IMG/VR virus record: IMGVR_UViG_2554235190_000005
Span: 1 to 23,915 of that record
Origin: a virus
Taxonomy: Duplodnaviria > Heunggongvirae > Uroviricota > Caudoviricetes
Reading direction: 5' to 3' (one strand)
DNA: 23,915 bases
How positions within the stretch are numbered: the first letter of the stretch is position 1; every line of letters begins with the position of its first letter. Positions 1,449-20,960 of the stretch are shown piece by piece. Below the pieces are notes generated by a model, which searched no databases, was not told the origin of the DNA, and saw only the letters and a program-made list of their open reading frames with translations. The position numbers and the translations under genes were made by a program.

Positions 1449-2105
1449 CTATTTAACATACTTGACTGTTAAACTTATAATTTTACCAATTATTTCAATG
1501 TCTTCTATCTTGCATTCGAAGGCTCTGTTTCCACCCTCGACGAAGATTCTTCCACCGGGTAAACGAGTAATGTCACGGATCGTTATTTCGCCATCAATAC
1601 TTATTACCCATTTACCATCACGTATATCATCAAATTCTTTATCACAAATAAATTCAGAATTGTTATCTGTGATGACAAAAGGTTTTTTAAACGTAGAGGG
1701 TAGAAATCCCTTATCAAAAATATAAAAACCGTCTTTCTGCAATGCTCCATCAGACAATAAATATTTTTCTACTTCTATAGTATTTGTATTTGCTGATGCT
1801 TGCTTTGAACCATGCCCTGTTGTTAGCCAATTAAGCGAGGTGCCCGTTTCAAGGGCGCACTGGATTACCCAATCTGCTGGAAAAATATCACGCATATAGC
1901 GCGTTGCCATGGTGCTCTTAGAAACACCTAAATGATCACATAGAGCCTGACGGGTACCGAACCCATATGCTTCAACTAAACGTTCTATGGCTTTCTTACC
2001 GCCGCTATTGAAATCCACAAGTCCTCCAAAGAAATCCAAAATTCGTTGACAGATTCCAAAAGCGATCTTAAAGTTGAACCAGAAGTGTTCTTTTGGAGCC
2101 TTCAC
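1449..2105 (-). CDS. cI: CI-type immunity repressor (186-like)
   Basis: 218-aa ORF divergent from the apl/cII operon; helix-turn-helix-like segment (..TRQALCDHLGVSKSTMATRYMR..); position and orientation match 186 cI. Start at 2105 is a GTG (no in-frame ATG until after the HTH), so the exact N-terminus is uncertain. Confidence 0.7.
   Translation of the reverse strand: MKAPKEHFWFNFKIAFGICQRILDFFGGLVDFNSGGKKAIERLVEAYGFGTRQALCDHLGVSKSTMATRYMRDIFPADWVIQCALETGTSLNWLTTGHGSKQASANTNTIEVEKYLLSDGALQKDGFYIFDKGFLPSTFKKPFVITDNNSEFICDKEFDDIRDGKWVISIDGEITIRDITRLPGGRIFVEGGNRAFECKIEDIEIIGKIISLTVKYVK
2046..2074 (+). promoter_or_regulatory. Candidate rightward lytic promoter (pR-like): TTGACA-N17-TAAAGT
   Basis: TTGACA at 2046-2051, 17-nt spacer, TAAAGT at 2069-2074, upstream of apl (ATG 2164). 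In 186 pR and pL are face-to-face, so a promoter inside the cI 5' region is expected. Motif match only. Confidence 0.3.
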
Positions 2106-4232: not shown

Positions 4233-5086
4233 GCACCATCCTGAAATGGGCGGGAAATAAAACCGCCATTATGCCAGAACTGAAAAAATACCTTCCTGCT
4301 GGCCCGCGACTGGTTGAACCTTTCGCGGGTTCCTGTGCTGTGATGATGGAAACGGATTATCCCAGCTATCTGGTTGCGGATATTAATCCTGATTTAATCA
4401 ACCTCTATAAAAAGGTTGCCGCTGATTGTGAATCGTTTATATCTCGCGCCAGAGTTTTATTTGAGATCGCAAACAGGGAGGTGGCTTATTACAACATAAG
4501 GCAGGAGTTTAACTGCTCAACTGAAATTACTGATTTCATGAAAGCGGTATATTTCCTGTATCTTAATCGTCACGGTTACCGTGGTTTATGTCGCTATAAC
4601 AAGAGCGGGCATTTCAACATCCCCTACGGTAATTATAAAAATCCGTATTTCCCTGAAAAAGAACTTCGCACATTTGCAGAAAAAGCCCAGCGAGCAACGT
4701 TTATCTGCGCCAGCTTTGATGAAACGCTGGCGATGTTGAAGGCGGGAGATGTGGTGTATTGCGATCCGCCGTATGACGGTACGTTTTCCGGCTATCACAC
4801 TGATGGTTTCACTGAAGATGACCAGTATCACCTGGCATCCGTTCTTGAACATCGGTCATCAGAAGGACATCCAGTCATTGTTTCTAACAGTGACACATCC
4901 CTGATCCGTTCGCTGTATCGCAATTTTACTCACCACTATATCAAGGTAAAACGCAGCATCGGTGTGGCAGCTGGCGAGGGTAAATCAGCAACAGAAATCA
5001 TTGCTGTTTCCGGGCCGCGCTGCTGGATGGGATTTGATTATTCGCGTGGCGTGGATAGTTCTGCCGTGTACGGAGTACGTGCATGA
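4229..5086 (+). CDS. DNA adenine methyltransferase, Dam/D12 class (N6-adenine MTase)
   Basis: N-terminus [23 protein letters not shown]...[10 protein letters not shown] and a DPPY catalytic motif (..[10 protein letters not shown]..); ATG 4229 overlaps the upstream stop, GGAGGTG RBS. Confidence 0.85.
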
Positions 5087-7497
5087 GTCATGCCGATATG
5101 AACAACTGCTGCGGCTTTAACGAGGCTGCCGCAGCATTCTCATGGAACAGCCCGAAAAAGGCCATTAACCCTTATCTGGACCCGGCGGAAGTTGCGCCGG
5201 TTTCTACGCTTTCAAACCTGATCACTCTGTACGCTGCCGATAACGAGCAGGAACAGTTGCGCCGCGAGGCACTGAGTGATCAGGTCTGGGAGCGTTATTT
5301 CTTTAATGAATCACGTGATCCTGTCCAGCGCGAAATGGAGCAGGATAAGCTCATTAGCCGGGCAAAGCTGGCGCATGAGCAGCAGCGTTTTAATTCAGAC
5401 ATGGTCATTCTGGCGGACGTCAACGCCCAGCCTTCCCATATCAGCAAGCCGCTGATGCAACGTATTGAATACTTCAGCAGCCTGGGCAGGCCAAAGGCTT
5501 ATTCCCGCTATTTACGTGAGACGATTAAGCCATGTCTGGAACGACTGGAGCATGTACGCGACAGTCAGCTATCTGCATCTTTTCGCTTTATGGCAAGCCA
5601 TGAAGGGCTGGACGGCCTGCTGATCCTGCCTGAAATGAGTCAGGATCAGGTGAAACGCCTGTCCACCCTGGTAGCTGCGCATATGAGTATGTGCCTTGAT
5701 GCAGCTTGTGGTGATTTGTATGCCACCGATGACGTTAAGCCAGAAGAAATCCGCAAGACATGGGAAAAGGTGGCAGCGGAAACCCTGCGTCTGGATGTCA
5801 TCCCACCTGCGTTTGAGCAACTCCGTCGGAAAAGAAACCGCCGTAAACCCGTGCCCTATGAACTCATTCCGGGTTCGCTGGCGCGTATGTTGTGCGCCGA
5901 CTGGTGGTACCGGAAATTATGGAAGATGCGTTGCGAATGGCGGGAAGAGCAGTTGCGCGCTGTTTGCCTGGTCAGCAAAAAAGCATCTCCTTATGTCAGC
6001 TATGAAGCCGTGATGCATAAACGTGAGCAGCGCCGTAAGTCGCTGGAGTTTTTCCGTTCTCATGAACTGGTGAACGAAGACGGCGACACGCTGGACATGG
6101 AGGATGTGGTAAACGCCAGCAGCAGCAACCCTGCGCATCGCCGCAATGAGATGATGGCCTGTGTTAAAGGTCTGGAGCTTATCGCGGAAATGCGCGGTGA
6201 CTGCGCCGTTTTCTACACTATCACCTGTCCGTCGCGTTTCCATTCCACGCTAAATAACGGCAGACCAAACCCGACCTGGACAAACGCGACGGTAAGACAA
6301 AGCAGCGATTATCTGGTCGGCATGTTTGCTGCATTTCGTAAGGCGATGCACAAAGCCGGGTTGCGCTGGTATGGCGTGCGGGTGGCTGAGCCGCATCATG
6401 ATGGCACAGTTCACTGGCACCTGTTGTGTTTCATGCGCAAAAAAGACCGCCGTGCCATCACTGCATTACTGCGTAAGTTTGCCATCCGTGAAGACCGCGA
6501 GGAGCTGGGCAATAACACTGGGCCGCGCTTTAAGTCTGAGTTGATTAACCCGCGCAAAGGAACGCCGACAAGCTACATCGCGAAATATATCAGTAAGAAC
6601 ATTGACGGTCGTGGTCTGGCTGGCGAGATCAGCAAGGAAACGGGTAAATCTCTGCGTGATAACGCTGAATACGTGAATGCCTGGGCGTCTCTGCATCGTG
6701 TTCAGCAATTCCGCTTCTTTGGTATTCCGGGGCGTCAGGCTTACCGTGAACTTCGCTTGCTGGCTGGTCAGGCGGCAAGGCAACAGGGTGACAAAAAAGC
6801 AGGTGCGCCGGTACTGGATAACCCGCGTCTTGATGCCATTCTGGCTGCTGCTGATGCTGGTTGTTTTGCCACCTACATCATGAAGCAGGGCGGCGTACTG
6901 GTTCCCCGTAAATATCACCTCATCAGAACCGCTTATGAAATCAACGAAGAGCCGACCGCCTATGGCGATCACGGCATTCGTATTTATGGCATCTGGTCAC
7001 CCATTGCAGAGGGCAAGATCTGCACTCATGCAGTGAAGTGGAAAATGGTTCGTAAAGCCGTTGACGTTCAGGAGGCGGCAGCCGACCAGGGCGCTTGCGC
7101 CCCTTGGACTCGTGGCAATAACTGTCCCCTTGCTGAAAATTTGTACCAACAAGGGAAAGACAAATCAACTGATGGAGATACCAGAACGGATATCACCCGC
7201 ATGGATGACAAGGAGTTGCACGATTACCTGCACAGTATGAGCAAAAAAGAGCGCCGGGAACTGGCAGCAAGGTTACGCCTGGTGAAACCGAAACGGCGTA
7301 AAGACTACAAACAGCGAATTACAGACCATCAGCGACTGCAGCTCGTGTATGAACTGAAGTCCAGGGGATTTGATGGCAGCGAGAAAGAGGTCGATTTACT
7401 GCTTCGCGGCGGCAGTATTCCGTCAGGAGCAGGGCTACGTATCTTCTATCGGAACCAGCGTTTGCAGGAAGATGATAAGTGGCGGAACCTGTATTAA
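5083..7497 (+). CDS. A: Replication initiation protein (P2 gpA-like rolling-circle endonuclease)
   Basis: 804-aa ORF at the end of the early operon; size and position match P2/186 gene A. Start overlaps the dam stop; the true start could be a downstream Met. Confidence 0.8.
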
Positions 7498-7849: not shown

Positions 7850-8083
7850 ATGCGCATTGAAATAATGATCGATAAAGAGCAGAAGATTAGCCAGTCTACC
7901 CTGGACGCTCTGGAGTCCGAGCTTTACCGCAACCTGCAACCCATCTATCCCAAGACCGCTATCCGCATCCGTAAAGGGTCGGCAAACGGCGTTGAGCTGA
8001 GTGGCTTAAAGCTTGATGAAGACAAAAAGCGGGTGATGGAAATTATGCAACAGGTTTGGGAAGACGACAGCTGGCTGCACTAA
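7850..8083 (+). CDS. DinI-family protein (Tum C-terminal-like)
   Basis: MRIEIMIDKEQK...LDALESEL...VWEDDSWL resembles E. coli DinI (MRIEVTIAK...ETWESADDWF) in length and motifs; RBS GAGG upstream of ATG 7850. Confidence 0.7.
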   Translation: MRIEIMIDKEQKISQSTLDALESELYRNLQPIYPKTAIRIRKGSANGVELSGLKLDEDKKRVMEIMQQVWEDDSWLH

Positions 8084-8156
8084 GGAACGTTCCTGATGTA
8101 AGAACTTGAATCTGACGTCAGCAAGGTTGAACAACGAGAGTAGCGAGGCGTTAGCC

Positions 8157-8417
8157 ATGGGTAAAAAAGACAGTAATCACCAGATTATTTATCGGGGCTA
8201 GGTGCTGGAACGTTTAACCCTTGGCGACTGGGTCTTCTTTCAACGCCCAAAGGAGTGTGGCGGAGGTTTTTGGTTGGGCCGCATCTATGAAGACTGCTTC
8301 TGGCTTGAGCTGGAATTCCCCGTTTCGCTATATGACGGCCTGGGGTTTTTGATGGAAGTCACTAGGGTAGAGCAGAGAAGTGATGAGGTTGACGCGAATT
8401 ATCCCCTGTTTGATTAA
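8157..8417 (+). pseudogene. Hypothetical gene interrupted by an in-frame amber codon (TAG at 8199-8201)
   Basis: ATG 8157 with GAGG RBS opens a frame that hits TAG after 14 codons and continues in the same frame as the track ORF 8202..8417 (GTG start, weak RBS). Confidence 0.4.
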
Positions 8418-8465
8418 AAATGTATTAGCTTATAATGGAATACTATTTTTGCAGGTGGGGGCGCA

Positions 8466-9077
8466 ATGGATTTAGTCTTTAAAGTTCTGGCTTCGTTGGG
8501 TGGGGTGTCTTTTGTTGCATCTGGCATATTTGTTTGGATCGGGAAAGTTTATTTAGAAAGATATAAGTCGCGGCTAAACAAAGATATTGCTGAATTTCAA
8601 TCACAACTGAGTGCAACTAATGAAAGAATAAAGGCTAAGTTAGACAATTCTGTTTATGTAACGAAAGCGTATTTTGATAAGGAGTTATCAGCATATAGTC
8701 TCATTTGGAATTCGATGTTTGAAACCAGAGAAAGCGTGCTTAAGCTGAGGCCTGCGCTGGATCATGTTGACCCCAACGAACCATTTGAAGAGAGAAAATT
8801 TAGAAGGTTGAAAGTTTTTTCTGATGCATTTAACACTTTTGTTACAAGTGTTGAATCTAACAAACCGTTCATCTCACCAGAGGTTTATATAATCTTGGAC
8901 CGTTTCCGGAAGGAATGCCTTTCAGAGTCAATATCGTTTAAGCATAGCGATCCAGAATTTGACGGGCAAAATTATTGGAAAGAGGCGGAGTTGAACCATA
9001 CAACCATCATCAAGCTTTTTGATGAGACGTGTGATGCAATTCGAGACAGGATGCACACATTAACTGTGGTTACGTAG
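8466..9077 (+). CDS. Membrane-anchored hypothetical protein (203 aa), AT-rich cargo
   Basis: N-terminal transmembrane-like helix (LASLGGVSFVASGIFVWIG) then a charged soluble domain; strongly AT-rich versus the phage backbone; TTATAAT-like -10 element upstream. Confidence 0.6.
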   Translation: MDLVFKVLASLGGVSFVASGIFVWIGKVYLERYKSRLNKDIAEFQSQLSATNERIKAKLDNSVYVTKAYFDKELSAYSLIWNSMFETRESVLKLRPALDHVDPNEPFEERKFRRLKVFSDAFNTFVTSVESNKPFISPEVYIILDRFRKECLSESISFKHSDPEFDGQNYWKEAELNHTTIIKLFDETCDAIRDRMHTLTVVT

Positions 9078-9237
9078 GTTTCCAAAAAGTCTCGATGCCC
9101 GCTTTGGAGATTGTGCATGTCTATGCCGCATGAATCCGCATGATCGTTTGAGGATCGTTTTAGCTGAGGCCCGCCAGGAGTGGCGGGATTTTGCTTATGT
9201 CATGCAGGCGCATGAAAACCGCTACATAAAGCGGGCA

Positions 9238-9256
9238 GGCGTGGCGGGGATACGAG
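9238..9256. other. Candidate cos site (19-nt cohesive-end sequence GGCGTGGCGGGGATACGAG followed by GCGCGCGC)
   Basis: From memory, P2 and 186 cohesive ends begin GGCGAGGCGGGGA / GGCGTGGCGGGGA; this is the only such match in the window and sits in a GC-rich non-coding gap between A-side cargo and Q, where cos is expected. Confidence 0.5.
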
Positions 9257-9293
9257 CGCGCGCTTATTACTTTGATAGTACTCGGGTTATAAT

Positions 9294-10976
9294 ATGGATG
9301 ACTATCTATCTCGGAGAATGTGCATGTCATTGGACTATATCAAAGAACAGTTGTCAGACTTTATTTCATCTGCAGAACCTGAGGTAATGGCTATTCAGGG
9401 TGAGTGGGGGATTGGGAAAACCTATACTTGGAATACTTTCTTAAAGGAAAATAAAAATAAGATTGCATTTAATAGATATAGTTACGTCTCTCTTTTTGGT
9501 GTTAATTCATTGGACGCATTAAAATACTCCATCTTTGAAAATACAATTACAAAAGATTTTATTGGAAATAAACCTAATTTAAAAACAGCAACACAAAATG
9601 CAAAGGGGCTTCTTGAATCCTGCACTAGAAAGACCGCTCGTGTGTTAAAAGAAACACCTGTTGTGAAAAATTTTACTACGACACTTGAGTCAATGTCATT
9701 TATGTCAATTACTAATGTTATTGTAGTCATAGATGACTTAGAAAGACGTGGTAAAAATTTAGAAGTGAAAGATGTCTTAGGGTTGGTTTCTTTATTGAAA
9801 GAACAAAAAAATTGTAAGGTGGTTCTTTTACTTAATAATGGGACAAGTGGTATGGATGACTACTCCACTTATAAAGAAAAGGTTATTGATAGAGAGATTA
9901 CCTATAACCCTACGCCAGAAGAATGTGCAGCTATAGCATATAAAAATGATTCTGATGTTCATAAATTATTAAGCAAATACTCCATTTCTCTAGGTATTAA
10001 AAATATTCGTATACTGAAAAAAATAGAGCGGTTTTTGCTAGCCTTGTTACCTGGTATTAACGTTAATTTTGATAAAATTGCAAATGAAGTCGCACGCTCC
10101 TTAACTTTGTATTGTTGGAGTCATTACGCATTTACTCCAGATGGAGATGTACCATCATTGGAGTATATTAGAAATATGAGAAATATCTATATGCGTGATG
10201 AAAAAGAGGATGGAAAAGAAAAAAAATGGCATAATACTTTGCTTATATATGGTTATAAAAAAACAAACGAACTTGATGAAGTCCTTATAGACATGGTTAA
10301 GCATGGATATATTGATATGAATAATTTTCAAAGGCAAGTAAGTCTAAGGAATGATGAACTTATCCGTGATAGTAAGCGAGGTTCACTGTTTGAAGCATGG
10401 AAGCTTTTCTATAATTCATTTGAAGATAACCGAAATCAGGTTGTTGATAATCTATATCAAGCGGTGGTTGGTGGGATAGAGTATGTAACTCCAAGTGACT
10501 TGGATAGTGTTGTCGGACTGTATAGAGATTTAGATGAAAATATTAAAGCAAGTGAATTAATAAGTAAATTTATTAATTACGGCAATGATGCTCTTAAGGA
10601 ATATGTCCAATCTATTTACATGAATGTTCATCCTATAAAAGATGCTGAGTTAAAGTCAAAAATCCAAGATTATTCTACTAATTTAAATCTGGATGGTTCT
10701 ATAAAGGATGTTCTAATAAAATTATCAAGTCAGAATGGTTGGTCTGATAGGCACGAGGAAATATTGGATGCTGCCTCAGAGGGTGACTACTATGATTTAT
10801 TTAAAAAAGTCATTCTTGAAGGTGGTGATTCAATAATAGCCACTGCTCTTAAGTTTGGTGGGTATAGCAATGGTTCAGATAGAATGAAACGCATCGGAGA
10901 AAAAGCGAGAAATGCTTTGATAAGAATTGGAAATGAGTCGAAGATTAATAAAATACGTGTTAGACGGTATTTGTAA
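9294..10976 (+). CDS. KAP-family P-loop NTPase (560 aa), AT-rich cargo; candidate defence / abortive-infection protein
   Basis: Walker A GEWGIGKTYTWN and Walker B-like VIVVIDDLER in the KAP arrangement; very AT-rich; the true start may be the ATG at 9324 (GGAG about 9 nt upstream). Confidence 0.8.
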   Translation: MDDYLSRRMCMSLDYIKEQLSDFISSAEPEVMAIQGEWGIGKTYTWNTFLKENKNKIAFNRYSYVSLFGVNSLDALKYSIFENTITKDFIGNKPNLKTATQNAKGLLESCTRKTARVLKETPVVKNFTTTLESMSFMSITNVIVVIDDLERRGKNLEVKDVLGLVSLLKEQKNCKVVLLLNNGTSGMDDYSTYKEKVIDREITYNPTPEECAAIAYKNDSDVHKLLSKYSISLGIKNIRILKKIERFLLALLPGINVNFDKIANEVARSLTLYCWSHYAFTPDGDVPSLEYIRNMRNIYMRDEKEDGKEKKWHNTLLIYGYKKTNELDEVLIDMVKHGYIDMNNFQRQVSLRNDELIRDSKRGSLFEAWKLFYNSFEDNRNQVVDNLYQAVVGGIEYVTPSDLDSVVGLYRDLDENIKASELISKFINYGNDALKEYVQSIYMNVHPIKDAELKSKIQDYSTNLNLDGSIKDVLIKLSSQNGWSDRHEEILDAASEGDYYDLFKKVILEGGDSIIATALKFGGYSNGSDRMKRIGEKARNALIRIGNESKINKIRVRRYL

Positions 10977-10984
10977 TTTGGGAG

Positions 10985-11002
10985 GGGGATTTTCATCCCC
11001 CA
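10985..11002. terminator. Perfect hairpin GGGGGAT-TTTC-ATCCCCC between convergent genes (NTPase + strand, Q - strand)
   Basis: 7-bp GC-rich stem with a 4-nt loop, sited between the stop at 10976 and the Q stop at 11015; no strong T-run on either strand, so terminator function is uncertain. Confidence 0.4.
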
Positions 11003-11014
11003 CACACATTTTAT

Positions 11015-12046
11015 CTAATTCAATGAATAATCTTTGAAGGCTATTATTTTTTTCTTTAGCCAAATATTAACTTCTACAAGTCTTTTTTGTAAAGGAATTA
11101 ACTCATTTCGCACAAAAACGCAACTGGCTTTCTCCACATCCCCAAACCCACCGACATTATTAGGCATAATCCCCATCATTTGCGGCGGCACACGATGCGC
11201 CGCCATCATGTCATCCCGGCTCACGTTCTTGATATTCAAAAACTCATCCTTCGCAGCGACCTCTGACAACGGGATAATCTGAAGCCCGTCCTTTTTGCCG
11301 TTAGGCGAGTACATAAACAGGTTGCGGAAGTTGCCCGGACCTTTGGCGCTTTTCATCGCATTACGGAGGTTGTTTACATCCTCCTGGTTCTGCGCGGCAT
11401 CGGTCATGTACATGATGAAGCCTGCATGGCTGCCGTTGATGTAATACTTACGGCGGAACAGCGTGGCGGACTCGTTGAGCAGGGCTGACGGAATGGCAGA
11501 AAGATAGCCGGGCAGGCCGTAGATCTCCTGGTTGATGTCCGGTTCCATCAGATGAAAAATGCTGCCTTTCGTGAACTGATACGGCTGAGTTGTCATACCG
11601 TATTGCACAAACCAGTAGGTATCTAGGTCTAACCCGCGTCGGGTGTATTTTGCCAGCGCAGGCTCAAGGGCGATAACTTCACCGAATCGGTTCGTGCGTT
11701 TCTCCAGGTAGGCGTTACCAAATACCAGATAGTCCTGCACAAAACGCGAAAAAGCCTGCTGGCTGAGCAGCGGATGAGGGATATAGGTACTGGTCAGAAT
11801 GTTGCACTTTACTGCAATCGGGGAACTGTGATGCACGGCAGCGCGGAAGGTGCGCGCCAGTCCGTCAAAGCTGACGGGCGGCTCATACCAACGATCTGTC
11901 TGTACGCATTCCACATAGTCCAGCAGTTCTCGGCGGTCCAGAACAGGAACGGGATCGCCGAAGCTGAATGCTTCGGCTGTAGTCTGGCTTTTAAGCTGGA
12001 TCTGTTTCGTCGCCGCAGCGCGGTTCTTCTTACTCTTTCCCATCAA
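11015..12046 (-). CDS. Q: Portal protein (P2 gpQ-like)
   Basis: 343 aa, leftward, translationally coupled to the upstream terminase gene; size and position match P2 Q. Confidence 0.9.
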   Translation of the reverse strand: MMGKSKKNRAAATKQIQLKSQTTAEAFSFGDPVPVLDRRELLDYVECVQTDRWYEPPVSFDGLARTFRAAVHHSSPIAVKCNILTSTYIPHPLLSQQAFSRFVQDYLVFGNAYLEKRTNRFGEVIALEPALAKYTRRGLDLDTYWFVQYGMTTQPYQFTKGSIFHLMEPDINQEIYGLPGYLSAIPSALLNESATLFRRKYYINGSHAGFIMYMTDAAQNQEDVNNLRNAMKSAKGPGNFRNLFMYSPNGKKDGLQIIPLSEVAAKDEFLNIKNVSRDDMMAAHRVPPQMMGIMPNNVGGFGDVEKASCVFVRNELIPLQKRLVEVNIWLKKKIIAFKDYSLN

Positions 12047-13809
12047 AAAATCTCCACAATATTGCTGGTATTGGCGGATTCGCCCTGCAGCGGTTCGTTA
12101 AACAGTGCGTGCATTGTTGCCCAGGCCAGATCGGCGTGGCTGGCTTCTTCGCTGCGGCTGGCTTCATAGGTCGGGCGGTTGCCACTGGCGGTGGTGGCGC
12201 GACGGATTGCCATAAATGACTGCGCTATGTCGGTGTGTCCGGCGTCAAACTCCAGACGGCGGTGGCTGATAATGTCGTAGGCCTTGAGTACCAGGGCGTT
12301 TTTAACATTGGGGTTGTAGACAAACTCCCGGACGGCAGGAAAGAACGCTTTCACGTTCTCATAAACCCCGTGACCAACGCCGGTTGAGTCGATACCGATA
12401 TAGGTCACGTTGTACTGTTCGGTCAGTTTTTTGATGGCGTCAGCCTGGGCGCGGAAGTCCATCCCGCGCCACTGGTGACGCTCAAGAATGCGGAACTTAC
12501 CGCCCGGCACGGCTGGCGGTGCCACCACCACGCATCCGGCGCTGTCGCCGTTCTGCGTACCTTTTGCCGGGTCATAACCGATCCACACTTCGCGCCAGCC
12601 AAACGGGCGAAGGGCCAGTGCATGGAAGTCGGTCCAGACTTCCCAGCTGTCCACCATGCACGCCTGCAGCTCGCTGAGCGGAAACACGGACGCGAGATCG
12701 TCCACGAACTCGCACATCAGCAGGTTCAGGTATTCATCCGGGCTGTACTCCATGCGCAACTGGTCAAGGTCGAACAGGTTACAGCCGCCGCGCACTGCAT
12801 CTTCCACGGTGACTATCTGGCGGTATTGCCCGTCTGCGCACAGCAGGCCGGGGGCCAGATTGCTGTGGGACAGGTCGATGTCCACCTTGTCGGCTTTGTT
12901 GCGTCCACGGTTGAACAGCGCACCGGACCAGAACGGATAAGCACTGTGGGTCAGGCTGGATGGCGTGGAAAAATAGGTTTGTCGCCATTTCTTGTGAATA
13001 GCCATACCGGAAGCCACTTTGCGCAGCTCCTGGAATTTCGGTATCCAGAAATATTCATCCAGATACAGGTTGCCGTGGTAACTCTGCGCCGTGCGGGCAT
13101 TGGTGCCGAGGAAGTAAAGCGTGGCCCCGTTAGGAAGCACCATCGGATCGCCTTTCAACTCCACCTCCACTTCTTTGGCGAAGTCGATGATGTACTGTTT
13201 AAAGACGTGGGCCTGTGCCTTACTGGCGGAAAGGAAAATCTGGTTACGTCCGGTAAGCAGGGCGTCAATCAGGGCTTCACGGGCAAAGTAAAAGGTCGCG
13301 CCGATCTGGCGTGACTTCAGCAGGTTGCGGATGCGGTTGGTTTTTCCGGCTTCCCACCAGTGGCGCTGGTAGTTGAACATGGAGGAATGGAAAATTTCTT
13401 CCAGCTTCTCAATCTGTTCATCGGTGAAAACGTTCTTTTCCGGCTGACGGCGTGGGCCTTTGTTGCGGTTGGCGACGTTAGGGTTTAAGTCGGCTTCGTT
13501 GCCGCCATTGTTAAACTTGCCGATCCGCGCGTGGCGTTCCGACTGGCGCGCCAGCAGGTCAATCTCTTTGAAATCTTTCCCTTCTTTGTGCTCCTTCATA
13601 ATGAGCTGGCAGTAGCGTGCGGCGGTGGTGAGCTGCATCTGATCCAGCGGCCCATAGTCACCCCACTTGTCGCGTTTTTTCCAGCTGTGAACGGTTGCAA
13701 CTTTCTCGCCCAGCATTTCAGCAATGCGGGCTACGCGGTATCCCTGAAAGTACAGCAGCATGGCCTGCCGACGGGGATCGAGATCTGCGGGTGTCAGTGT
13801 GGTGTTCAT
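12043..13809 (-). CDS. P: Terminase large (ATPase) subunit (P2 gpP-like)
   Basis: 588 aa, divergent from the O-N-M-L operon as in P2; size matches gpP. Confidence 0.9.
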   Translation of the reverse strand: MNTTLTPADLDPRRQAMLLYFQGYRVARIAEMLGEKVATVHSWKKRDKWGDYGPLDQMQLTTAARYCQLIMKEHKEGKDFKEIDLLARQSERHARIGKFNNGGNEADLNPNVANRNKGPRRQPEKNVFTDEQIEKLEEIFHSSMFNYQRHWWEAGKTNRIRNLLKSRQIGATFYFAREALIDALLTGRNQIFLSASKAQAHVFKQYIIDFAKEVEVELKGDPMVLPNGATLYFLGTNARTAQSYHGNLYLDEYFWIPKFQELRKVASGMAIHKKWRQTYFSTPSSLTHSAYPFWSGALFNRGRNKADKVDIDLSHSNLAPGLLCADGQYRQIVTVEDAVRGGCNLFDLDQLRMEYSPDEYLNLLMCEFVDDLASVFPLSELQACMVDSWEVWTDFHALALRPFGWREVWIGYDPAKGTQNGDSAGCVVVAPPAVPGGKFRILERHQWRGMDFRAQADAIKKLTEQYNVTYIGIDSTGVGHGVYENVKAFFPAVREFVYNPNVKNALVLKAYDIISHRRLEFDAGHTDIAQSFMAIRRATTASGNRPTYEASRSEEASHADLAWATMHALFNEPLQGESANTSNIVEIF

Positions 13810-18549: not shown

Positions 18550-18943
18550 AGCGGTGCCTTATGTCCGCAATAACCCGGACAAACTGCATCTGTTTGTGGA
18601 TAACGGTTCGCTGGTTGCCACGGGGGCCAGCTCCATGTCGTGGGAGTACCGTTACACCCTGAACGCGGTGATTGAGGATTTCAGCGGCGACCAGAATCTG
18701 CTGATGGCCCCGGTTTTGCTGTGGCTGCGTGATAACCAGCCCGATGCCATCAATAACCCGGCGTTACGGGAAAAACTATTCACCTTTGAGGTGGATATTT
18801 TGCGCAACGATGTCTGTGATATCAGCCTTAACCTGCAACTGACGGAGCGTGTGCTGGTCAGTACTGACGGCAGTGTGTCGAGTGTTGAAGCGGTGCCGGA
18901 GCCGGACGAACCCGAGGAAATGTGGACGGTGAAGCGTGGATAA
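18512..18943 (+). CDS. R: Tail completion protein (P2 gpR-like)
   Basis: From the GTG at 18512 the translation (M)NKPQSLRHAL...LHLFVDNGSL...RYTLNAVIEDFSGD...LLWLRDNQPD matches P2 gpR as I recall it; GGAG RBS. Confidence 0.8.
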   Translation: MNKPQSLRHALNKAVPYVRNNPDKLHLFVDNGSLVATGASSMSWEYRYTLNAVIEDFSGDQNLLMAPVLLWLRDNQPDAINNPALREKLFTFEVDILRNDVCDISLNLQLTERVLVSTDGSVSSVEAVPEPDEPEEMWTVKRG

Positions 18944-19388
18944 TCTGCATAAGGTCGATGAGTGGCTGGCGGCACTGCTGGCGAATCTGGAGCCTGCCGC
19001 ACGCAACCGTATGATGCGGCAACTGGCGCAACAGGTGCGCCGGACGCAGCAGCAGAATATCAGGCTACAGCGCAATCCTGATGGCAGTGGATACGAGCCG
19101 CGCCGGGTAACTGCCCGAACAAAGAAGGGCCGTATTAAGCGACAAATGTTCACCAAACTCCGCACAACAAAATACCTTAAAACCGCTGCTAGCGCCGACT
19201 CTGCCAGCGTACAGTTTGAAGGTAAGGTGCAGCGCATTGCCCGCGTCCATCATTACGGGTTGCGTGATCGTGTCAGCCGTAAAGGCCCGGAGGTTCGTTA
19301 TACCAAACGTAACCTTCTCGGATTCAATTCTGTATCCGAGAGGTTAGTTAAAGACATAATAATAGATTGGATTCGTAGATTGTTATAA
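18936..19388 (+). CDS. S: Tail completion protein (P2 gpS-like)
   Basis: 150 aa; ..WLAALLANLEPAARNRMMRQLAQQVRRTQQQNIRLQRNPDGS.. resembles P2 gpS. The last ~20 codons are AT-rich and overlap the 3' end of the antisense cargo gene. Confidence 0.8.
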   Translation: MDNLHKVDEWLAALLANLEPAARNRMMRQLAQQVRRTQQQNIRLQRNPDGSGYEPRRVTARTKKGRIKRQMFTKLRTTKYLKTAASADSASVQFEGKVQRIARVHHYGLRDRVSRKGPEVRYTKRNLLGFNSVSERLVKDIIIDWIRRLL

Positions 19389-20288
19389 CCGCCATTTTGT
19401 TGTTTTGCTCATTGGATGTTTTTCTATCATATATCTTGCTATTTCCCCTAGGGCGGTTTTATCTTCGACGAAAATCTCAGCTGTGCGTGGTGAAATAATA
19501 GGGGGTGTGTTTTTTATAGGCTCATTGAATTTTATTGGTTCGTAGCGGAACTCATACTTCCAATTTGCTAGTGCAGCTAGGCTCAAAGCAACATGAGTAT
19601 CCTTGAGGCGATGGTAAATCTTCCGAGCAGATTCTAGAGAGCATCGCTCACCAAGGGTAACTGCTTTGATAGCATCTAGTGGAATATCGTTTGTATAAAT
19701 ATCAAATTGCTTAGCCTTGGCTTTATTTTTTTTACAATCCCTTAATGATCTGATTAAGCGATATTCTTTTTCATAGTTCCAGATGTCAGATTTTATACAT
19801 AAATTTGAAATGGGTATGGTTTCATTTTTTAAAAAGTAATCCATATGGATAATCGGCCGATCTTTCTCGTATCTAACTTCCGTCAGGCCAGAAAAATACT
19901 CATGACTTTCATCGAACTCTATGACTGCACCACTATATTCATCAGCGTAGTGTGCCCACATTAAATGTGAGTCTGCATTTTTTGAAAGGCATAGTATTCC
20001 TATTTCATTATTTAGATTGCTTATAAGTTCACGGGAAAAAATATCGTTGCAGTTTTCGTGTTGAAAATTCGACTCAAGGCGATAACTATCAATTAAAGGC
20101 TCTTGTGACAGAACATCAAATCGTAGTTGTACCCGATCACCTTCATTGTAGTTTGGATTGAAAACCTCTAAAGCTAGTTCAAACGGGTCATTAAATCCTC
20201 CCGGTTGAGTGAATCGTATTGAACCATTGAGAATGTAATCAAGTGTTGTAGCTGTAACGTATTTATATAGTGACATTTTATAACTCAT
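19383..20288 (-). CDS. DUF2971-like hypothetical protein (about 300 aa), AT-rich cargo inserted antisense between S and V
   Basis: Track ORF 19383..20393 (-); probable start at the ATG at 20288 or 20276 (MSYKMSLYKYV...). N-terminal motif LYKY...L.YILNGSIRF..P..FNDPFE matches the DUF2971 signature as I remember it. Strongly AT-rich; sole minus-strand gene inside the late operon. Confidence 0.7.
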   Translation of the reverse strand: MSYKMSLYKYVTATTLDYILNGSIRFTQPGGFNDPFELALEVFNPNYNEGDRVQLRFDVLSQEPLIDSYRLESNFQHENCNDIFSRELISNLNNEIGILCLSKNADSHLMWAHYADEYSGAVIEFDESHEYFSGLTEVRYEKDRPIIHMDYFLKNETIPISNLCIKSDIWNYEKEYRLIRSLRDCKKNKAKAKQFDIYTNDIPLDAIKAVTLGERCSLESARKIYHRLKDTHVALSLAALANWKYEFRYEPIKFNEPIKNTPPIISPRTAEIFVEDKTALGEIARYMIEKHPMSKTTKWRL

Positions 20289-20317
20289 GCTGTTTTGTTC
20301 GAATTGTTTGTGATTAT

Positions 20318-20335
20318 TGTTTGGAATTCCATACA
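20318..20335. promoter_or_regulatory. Candidate late-promoter activator site (TGT-N12-ACA) upstream of V
   Basis: TGT(20318-20320)-N12-ACA(20333-20335) in the gap between the cargo gene and V; spacing to the V ATG (20382) is tight, so the assignment is tentative. Confidence 0.3.
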
Positions 20336-20381
20336 AAAGCAATCGAATGCTGATAGCAAACCATTTCTGCATTGTATTGGC

Positions 20382-20960
20382 ATGAACGCACAACTAACCG
20401 AAATCATGCGCCTTATCACCAACCTGATCCGCACCGGCACCGTGACCGAAGTGGACCGGGAGAACTGGCTTTGCCGAGTGAAAACAGGCGACCTTGAAAC
20501 AAACTGGATTAACTGGCTGACATTCCGGGCTGGCAAATCGCGCACCTGGTGGTGTCCGTCACCAGGGGAGCAGGTGGTGCTGTTCAGCCTGGGGGGCAAT
20601 CTGGAAACCGCCTTTGCGCTGCCTGCCATCTACTCCAATCAGTTTGCGCCGCCGTCGGATTCCGTGGACGGCTGCGTGACGGAGTACCCGGACGGGGGCT
20701 GGTTTGAGTATGAACCCGCCACCGGGCGGTGGCATGTCCGGGGTATCAAATCCATGGTGATCGAGGCGGCGGACAGTATCACCCTCAAAACCGGTGAGTT
20801 TGTGGTAGAGGCTGACACCACGCGCATTAACAGCGAGGTGGTGATCAATGGCAGCGTCACCCAGGGCGGCGGCGCGATGAGTTCCAACGGGATCGTAGTG
20901 GATAAACACGGTCACACCGGCGTTAAGTCCGGCGGCGATACGTCAGGAGGCCCGGTATGA
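20382..20960 (+). CDS. V: Baseplate spike / assembly protein (P2 gpV-like)
   Basis: From ATG 20382: MNAQLTEIMRLITNLIRTGTVTEVD..., parallel to P2 gpV's N-terminus as I recall it. Confidence 0.85.
   Translation: MNAQLTEIMRLITNLIRTGTVTEVDRENWLCRVKTGDLETNWINWLTFRAGKSRTWWCPSPGEQVVLFSLGGNLETAFALPAIYSNQFAPPSDSVDGCVTEYPDGGWFEYEPATGRWHVRGIKSMVIEAADSITLKTGEFVVEADTTRINSEVVINGSVTQGGGAMSSNGIVVDKHGHTGVKSGGDTSGGPV

Follow-up and report, generated by a model that had tools for sequence, protein, structure and literature searches.

The stretch of DNA analysed here, 23,915 nucleotides at positions 1 to 23,915 of IMG/VR virus record IMGVR_UViG_2554235190_000005 (hereafter the window), comprises most of a P2-like prophage of the 186/Elveevirus type. 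Its left part carries, in order, an integrase fragment, a CI repressor gene (1449..2105), early genes, the replication gene A (gpA) and a DinI-family gene. Further right lie the portal gene Q (gpQ) and the terminase gene P, each on the minus strand, and then the late genes. Between gpA and gpQ are two plus-strand open reading frames (ORFs), 8466..9077 and 9294..10976, which encode a membrane-anchored protein of 203 amino acids (aa) and a KAP-family P-loop NTPase of up to 560 aa. Neither is a chance ORF, since both have real homologue families. The GC content over the two genes was 0.32-0.38, compared with 0.51-0.58 in gpA and the Q and P genes. A first-pass annotation of the window had described two AT-rich, same-strand genes between gene A and the portal gene, and the ORFs, GC profile and flanking genes confirmed this. 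The nearest match among complete Escherichia coli genomes was CP025862, which is 98.3% identical over the region.

The cos-proximal region between gpA and gpQ of P2-like phages is a documented defence hotspot (Rousset 2022, PMC9122126). The arrangement of CP025862 appears in Table S5A of that study as 'hypothetical + hypothetical + KAP_NTPase + DinI', with identical protein accessions, and the same table also contains the KAP gene with other partners. In the window, both genes lie between gpA and gpQ, at a site that varies among otherwise collinear prophages, and both are atypical in composition. They are horizontally acquired cargo of this known hotspot.

A conserved cos-region block separates the two genes. 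It is shared with P2-like phages of several enterobacterial genera (Table 1), including the Salmonella phage SopEPhi, and was found in 1,268 of the 5,426 complete E. coli genomes searched here. The P2 cos core was not found in the window at three or fewer mismatches because the local core differs from it at five positions, and it was located by alignment instead. The predicted cohesive end, GGCGTGGCGGGGATACGAG, matches letter for letter the cos that is annotated at the left end of phage Cartapus. In the linear Cartapus record, a homologue of the 203-aa gene is the final gene, and a DUF4145 gene occupies the slot between cos and the portal gene. In the virion DNA the extreme right end therefore carries the 203-aa gene, and the extreme left end carries the KAP gene. 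The shared block, the core alignment and the Cartapus match all agree with the earlier proposal that cos parts the two genes in the linear virion.

Two other features of this interval were considered and set aside. A 16-nt direct repeat at 9106-9121 and 9313-9328 (GGAGAtTGTGCATGTC and GGAGAaTGTGCATGTC) brackets the cos block, and both the KAP start codon and its ribosome-binding site fall within the right copy. As a recombination scar it was rejected: the repeat pair is not conserved in other loci and is probably due to chance. An 85-aa ORF (9130..9387, plus strand) crosses the cos block into the KAP start; it had no family match and is probably spurious.

The distribution of the two genes was then compared across the E. 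coli genomes. The 203-aa gene was present in 52 of them and the KAP gene, at a coverage of at least 80%, in 128, the latter including 14 records at 95-99% identity and others mostly near 80%. Both genes occurred together in a single genome, CP025862, where independence predicts 1.2 joint occurrences over all 5,426 genomes and 5.2 over the 1,268 carriers of the cos block; these counts are uncorrected for clonal relatedness. The partners varied for both genes. Across cos from the KAP gene we found a 111-aa minus-strand gene, a pair of genes encoding 71 and 280 aa, or nothing, and a 43%-identical KAP homologue in Salmonella occupies the same slot with a 72+280-aa pair across cos. An 83%-identical homologue of the 203-aa protein in Enterobacter and Citrobacter is always in the gpA-side slot. 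Five of these loci share one backbone (L006-L010) and carry across cos an unknown 223-aa gene, AIPR, STM3845 with RVT_1, an OLD-like AAA_15/TOPRIM gene, or AAA_21 with RloB. The two genes are about 245 bp apart, with a terminator-like hairpin and cos in between, and each has its own promoter-like element that is conserved in other carriers.

No conserved co-occurrence or synteny of the 203-aa and KAP genes was therefore seen, and we are confident that the two are independently acquired and exchanged cassettes rather than a functional pair. The first-pass annotation had taken them together as candidate undescribed defence cargo, while remarking that separation by cos would be unusual for a functional pair. 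Its view of the region as defence cargo agrees with the hotspot location and the KAP assignment, whereas the distribution contradicts a two-gene system. Because five cargo sets stand across cos on one backbone carrying the 203-aa gene, the gpA-gpQ hotspot can be regarded as two slots that recombine independently, a point that bears on how hotspot 'arrangements' are counted. Correcting the pair reading also keeps a spurious two-gene system out of catalogues.

The limits of the cassettes are approximate (Table 1). On the gpA side, homology with the backbone of non-carrier prophages stops at about 8153, and from about 8155 on, E. coli, phage Cartapus and Enterobacter share a sequence that accompanies the 203-aa gene; on the right this cassette extends to the conserved cos block. 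The unannotated 71/72-aa and 280-aa pair, perhaps a two-gene cargo unit in its own right, recurs on the gpA side of cos in other loci (L003, 4955-6012; L016, 2710-3770), and the KAP genes that adjoin it in E. coli and Salmonella have a mutual identity of only 43%.

Table 1. Positions of the two cassettes, the cos region and the flanking backbone genes in the window.
Feature	Position	Strand	Evidence and remarks
Gene A, replication endonuclease	5083..7497	+	804-aa ORF; homologous loci annotated replication endonuclease / Phage_GPA; backbone, left hotspot boundary
DinI-family gene	about 7850..8083	+	Pfam DinI, E 3.8e-24; RefSeq homologues 77 aa; semi-conserved backbone inside the hotspot
Cassette 1: small-ORF/leader region and 203-aa gene, gpA side of cos	about 8155..9105	+	limits approximate
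Small ORF, 71 aa, GTG start, phrog_2100	8202..8417	+	PHROG match, E 1.4e-28; coding status doubtful
Promoter-like TTGATT-N15-TATAAT (putative)	8414-8440	+	read from the sequence; kept in all 203-aa carriers aligned
203-aa gene	8466..9077	+	predicted N-terminal transmembrane anchor (about residues 7-25), then a long stalk helix carrying a cytoplasmic four-helix bundle
Conserved cos-region block (packaging signal)	about 9113-9263		88-95% identical in P2-like phages of Klebsiella, Salmonella, Yersinia and Escherichia
Terminator-like hairpin and T-run	9170-9197 (hairpin 9170-9187)	+	CCCGCCAGGAGTGGCGGG then ATTTTGCTTA; inside the conserved cos block
cos core, predicted 19-nt cohesive end, GGCGTGGCGGGGATACGAG	9238-9256		alignment with P2/P4 core GGCGAGGCGGGGAAAGCAC, 5 mismatches
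Cassette 2: KAP gene, cos-Q side	about 9264-11010	+	limits approximate
-10-like TATAAT upstream of KAP gene (putative)	9286-9291	+	kept in three further KAP loci
KAP-family P-loop NTPase gene, 550 aa	9324..10976	+	Pfam PF07693, PADLOC PDC-S49, phrog_4740, invariant Walker A/B, start-site evidence
Portal gene Q	11015..12046	-	ORF; phage portal protein annotation in homologous loci; backbone, right hotspot boundary
Terminase P	12043..13809	-	flanking backbone gene

The KAP gene most likely starts at the ATG at 9324, giving a protein of 550 aa, because RefSeq homologues begin there and a GGAG lies 7 nt upstream. The ATG at 9294, which opens the 560-aa ORF, is disfavoured because it sits beside the conserved -10-like TATAAT and is absent in the related locus L004, and it is probably unused. 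The length of 560 aa given in the first-pass annotation is thus more likely 550 aa, while the family and the Walker motifs named there held up. In the 560-aa ORF, the Pfam KAP_NTPase model (PF07693) matched residues 18-207 with 36.2 bits against a gathering score of 20. The PADLOC hidden Markov model (HMM) PDC-S49, which has no curated cut-off, matched residues 16-445 over profile positions 9-443 of 624 (E 1.5e-25, 88 bits). PDC-S49 and PDC-S20 were the only PADLOC matches, and the protein also matched phrog_4740 (E 1e-142). In the numbering of the 550-aa protein, Walker A (GEWGIGKT, residues 26-33) and the DDLER of Walker B (VVIDDLER, residues 133-141) were invariant in 41 homologues, down to 41% identity.

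An AlphaFold model of the KAP protein (predicted local distance difference test score, pLDDT, 82.7) shows an N-terminal alpha/beta NTPase with a helical lid extending to about residue 268, followed by about 17 helices. We divide the protein into an NTPase module of about residues 1-245 and an all-alpha C-terminal region of residues 246-550. Foldseek matches to ORC/Cdc6, Apaf-1 and RdrA were confined to the NTPase module. Distant homologues share 54% identity in the NTPase half and 34% in the C-terminal half. No transmembrane (TM) segment was detected, the highest 19-residue hydropathy being 1.28. TM helices inside the NTPase domain, typical of many though not all prokaryotic KAP members, are absent, and the insert between Walker A and Walker B (about residues 77-130) is helical, non-hydrophobic and modelled with low confidence. 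The protein also differs from the tripartite STAND/AVAST architecture with its effector, as the NTPase begins at about residue 20.

The KAP family is broad in the Gammaproteobacteria (more than 900 matches), and relatives occur also on phage-plasmids of about 110 kb, in Burkholderia phages and on Legionella plasmids. Klebsiella and E. coli replicons of phage-plasmid size (about 110 kb) commonly carry full-length relatives with 26-29% identity and form a further mobile niche of the family; another such relative is carried by phage CP054387. No neighbour was conserved among homologues in Salmonella P2-like prophages, Cronobacter lambdoid prophages, Pseudomonas and Shewanella. Their contexts include the accessory region of a Cronobacter lambdoid prophage, beside an AbiJ-like gene, a position beside an integrase in Pseudomonas, and a small island. 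The distant homologues had no TM partner.

The closest functionally validated relative is Reve, a single-gene KAP P-loop anti-phage system from P4 satellite hotspots that was validated in 2026. It blocks Drexlerviridae and siphoviruses, and with the construct pFD425 plaque formation by Bas01 and Bas09 dropped by 5-6 logs, a factor of about 1e-5 to 1e-6 (bioRxiv 10.64898/2026.02.27.708500). Dataset E1 supplied its sequence under the label Syst.19_UnknownSys7, which was recognised as Reve by the numbering order and its KAP domain. By BLASTP, Reve and the KAP protein share 26% identity over residues 21-243 (E 2e-13), and hhalign gave a probability of 97.9% for an alignment that ends at about residue 245. 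Reve itself matches PDC-S49 (2.5e-11) and, over its residues 4-544, phrog_4740 (2.7e-17). Both proteins are single-gene products of like size (586 aa in Reve, 550 aa here). Each begins with a KAP NTPase and continues as an all-helical region, they have their PDC-S49 and phrog_4740 assignments and an ORC-type top fold match in common, and both are encoded in AT-rich cargo adjoining a P2/P4-type cos. Reve resides on a satellite, whereas the KAP gene resides on a helper-type phage; the measured phenotype is that of Reve, and the KAP gene is known here from its sequence.

Several other known systems were compared. PDC-S49, a single-gene family to which the HMM match assigns the KAP protein, is a purely computational candidate, and the match stops short of about the last 100 residues of the protein. 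EF_KAP and other single KAP proteins protect Enterococcus in a Walker-B-dependent, non-abortive manner (PMC12632615). EF_KAP is likened to the KAP protein by architecture, both being single proteins in which a KAP NTPase is followed by about 300 aa without a known domain; it is a Firmicutes protein with two TM helices at its N-terminus, whereas the window protein appears soluble. Tmn and PifA share with it the superfamily signatures GxWGxGKT and hhhDDL(D/E)R, are carried on mobile elements and exclude phages, although Tmn has TM helices within its NTPase domain and the KAP protein has none. Orthology to PifA of the F plasmid was considered and rejected, as only the Walker A and B stretches align (BLASTP E 0.01, hhalign probability 24.7%). 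The P2 genes tin and old occupy the same locus as AT-rich, swappable, lysogen-expressed cargo, but P2 has both of them gpA-side of cos, whereas the two cassettes here flank it.

Neither window protein had a PADLOC or Pfam match to tin or to old/OLD/TOPRIM, in agreement with the first-pass annotation. Its further statements that the proteins resemble no named system and are undescribed fared unevenly. They are fair for the 203-aa protein and overstated for the KAP protein, which is listed in Table S5A of PMC9122126, matches the candidate PDC-S49 and is related to Reve. The KAP gene is therefore a further candidate member of an already catalogued family with a validated relative. Literature searches returned nothing on PDC-S49, the accessions or the PHROG identifiers.

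The 203-aa protein contains one TM-grade segment (residues 7-25, mean Kyte-Doolittle hydropathy 2.0). Its structure model is confident and helical with a continuous N-terminal helix, and resembles an N-terminally anchored four-helix bundle. Hydropathy and model thus both support the single N-terminal TM helix noted in the first-pass annotation. A K/R-rich stretch immediately follows the TM segment, and an N-out/C-in topology is therefore predicted by the positive-inside rule. The promoter-like element upstream of the gene was not reported by a consensus promoter scan, because its spacer is 15 nt long. The 71-aa ORF further upstream is found wherever the 203-aa gene is carried. In the Enterobacter copy, where the ORF is uncalled, an extra T disturbs the frame, and this stretch may for that reason serve as a leader or in regulation and not be a gene.

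A word-indexed search for relatives of the 203-aa protein returned only enterobacterial sequences. Exhaustive HMMER searching found 776 representative clusters (50% identity), 276 of them at E 1e-10 or better; the members are mostly about 200 aa long and were matched over their full length. Residues E73, P134, E154 and R195 were invariant in 61 members, down to 23% identity. The RefSeq label 'valyl-tRNA synthetase' (WP_016237789), found in many genomes, was rejected as a propagated misannotation, because its sole apparent basis is a coiled-coil match to PF10458 that scores below threshold (16.7 bits; cut-off 25.9). Among distant family members, one adjoins SieB, a DUF2971 gene and a serine recombinase, a second has a transposase and an HsdM fragment as neighbours, and a further one follows an integrase-containing gene.

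SieB and T4 Imm are small inner-membrane superinfection-exclusion proteins. By analogy, the 203-aa protein is likewise small and prophage-borne, with an N-terminal membrane anchor and a place in an accessory slot, although no sequence or specific fold similarity to either was found. It is possible, if somewhat doubtful, that the 203-aa protein is an anti-phage factor, acting in lysogens in membrane exclusion or defence. Equally tentatively, it may be the first recognisable member of a large unannotated family of single-gene phage-exclusion proteins borne by mobile elements. If such a role proved true, hundreds of protein clusters would gain a functional assignment.

Considering the locus as a whole, we favour the explanation that two unrelated single-gene cassettes flank cos, each probably acting alone as lysogen-expressed cargo. 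The KAP protein in particular is probably an anti-phage factor, most likely a stand-alone one expressed from the lysogen. It would be a soluble protein with an ORC/Cdc6/STAND-like nucleotide switch at its N-terminus and no N-terminal effector. The faster-evolving, all-helical C-terminal region of about 300 residues might recognise a component of the infecting phage. By binding or hydrolysing NTP, the Walker A/B site could then drive a conformational or oligomeric change by which phage replication is blocked. This scheme is proposed by analogy with Reve, EF_KAP, Tmn and PifA, and would make the KAP gene a P2-borne counterpart of the satellite system Reve. A comparison of the two, with their shared NTPase and divergent C-terminal halves, could show how KAP-type defences acquire specificity. 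Across cos, the 203-aa inner-membrane protein, with its own promoter-like element, might act alone as a lysogen-expressed superinfection-exclusion or defence factor; this is the weakest step of the proposal.

Several points weigh against these proposals. No recognisable effector domain was found in the KAP protein by Pfam, PADLOC or fold matches. Its homology with Reve is demonstrable for the NTPase module only, and specificity and mechanism may differ. The table of tested systems in Rousset 2022 has no KAP entry, the gene being catalogued there, and defence was seen for only about a third of the P2-hotspot systems that were cloned (PMC9122126). For the 203-aa family we found no relative in Pfam, PADLOC, the PDB or viral structures, and the structural matches of its four-helix bundle are generic.

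Three other explanations were weighed. The two genes could form a single two-component defence system, with a membrane-anchored effector and a KAP sensor, that is assembled only in the circular or integrated genome. They are indeed adjacent in the prophage, on the same strand and both AT-rich, a membrane protein with an ATPase is a common defence architecture, and the same combination recurs in CP025862. This reading is largely refuted by the distribution: co-occurrence is at or below chance, and each gene has many alternative neighbours or stands alone. With a hairpin and cos between the genes and no TM partner beside distant KAP homologues, we consider it very improbable. A second explanation concerns the KAP protein alone, which could serve the phage itself in packaging or cos handling, in replication, or in prophage or plasmid maintenance, its position on the portal side of cos reflecting such a role. 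The gene directly adjoins cos and the packaging genes, the fold resembles ORC/Cdc6 replication initiators, relatives reside on phage-plasmids, and partition systems rather than defence genes occupy about a quarter of P2-like hotspots (PMC9122126). The gene is nevertheless dispensable, being present in only 128 of the 1,268 cos-bearing E. coli genomes and missing from P2, Cartapus and many others. Unrelated lambdoid prophages and chromosomal islets carry it as well, it is AT-rich foreign cargo, and it belongs to a PADLOC defence-candidate family and is kin to the validated Reve. A role in the phage's own functions is therefore unlikely.

The alternative for the 203-aa protein is a stronger contender. 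This protein could be some other lysogenic-conversion or housekeeping membrane protein, involved in envelope modification, lysis timing or signalling, or could be neutral cargo, and we give this possibility a nearly even chance. None of the 61 members had a defence-family match, the nearest structural matches are four-helix-bundle folds of sensor type, and some distant members lie in ordinary chromosomal neighbourhoods, such as the Nitrospira locus L011. Most cloned P2-hotspot candidates also gave no phenotype (PMC9122126). Against this stand the strict residence of the gene in a defence hotspot slot and the distant member that adjoins SieB, DUF2971 and a recombinase. The four invariant residues and the breadth of the family likewise argue for selection on a specific function.

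Elsewhere in the window, a third AT-rich cargo island (GC 36-40%) lies on the minus strand at 19383-20393, between the tail gene S (18936-19388) and the baseplate gene V (20295-20960). In phage Cartapus the slot between these two genes holds a different minus-strand gene. The island in the window encodes a 336-aa DUF2971 protein that matches the PADLOC candidate PDC-S31 (E 1e-40).

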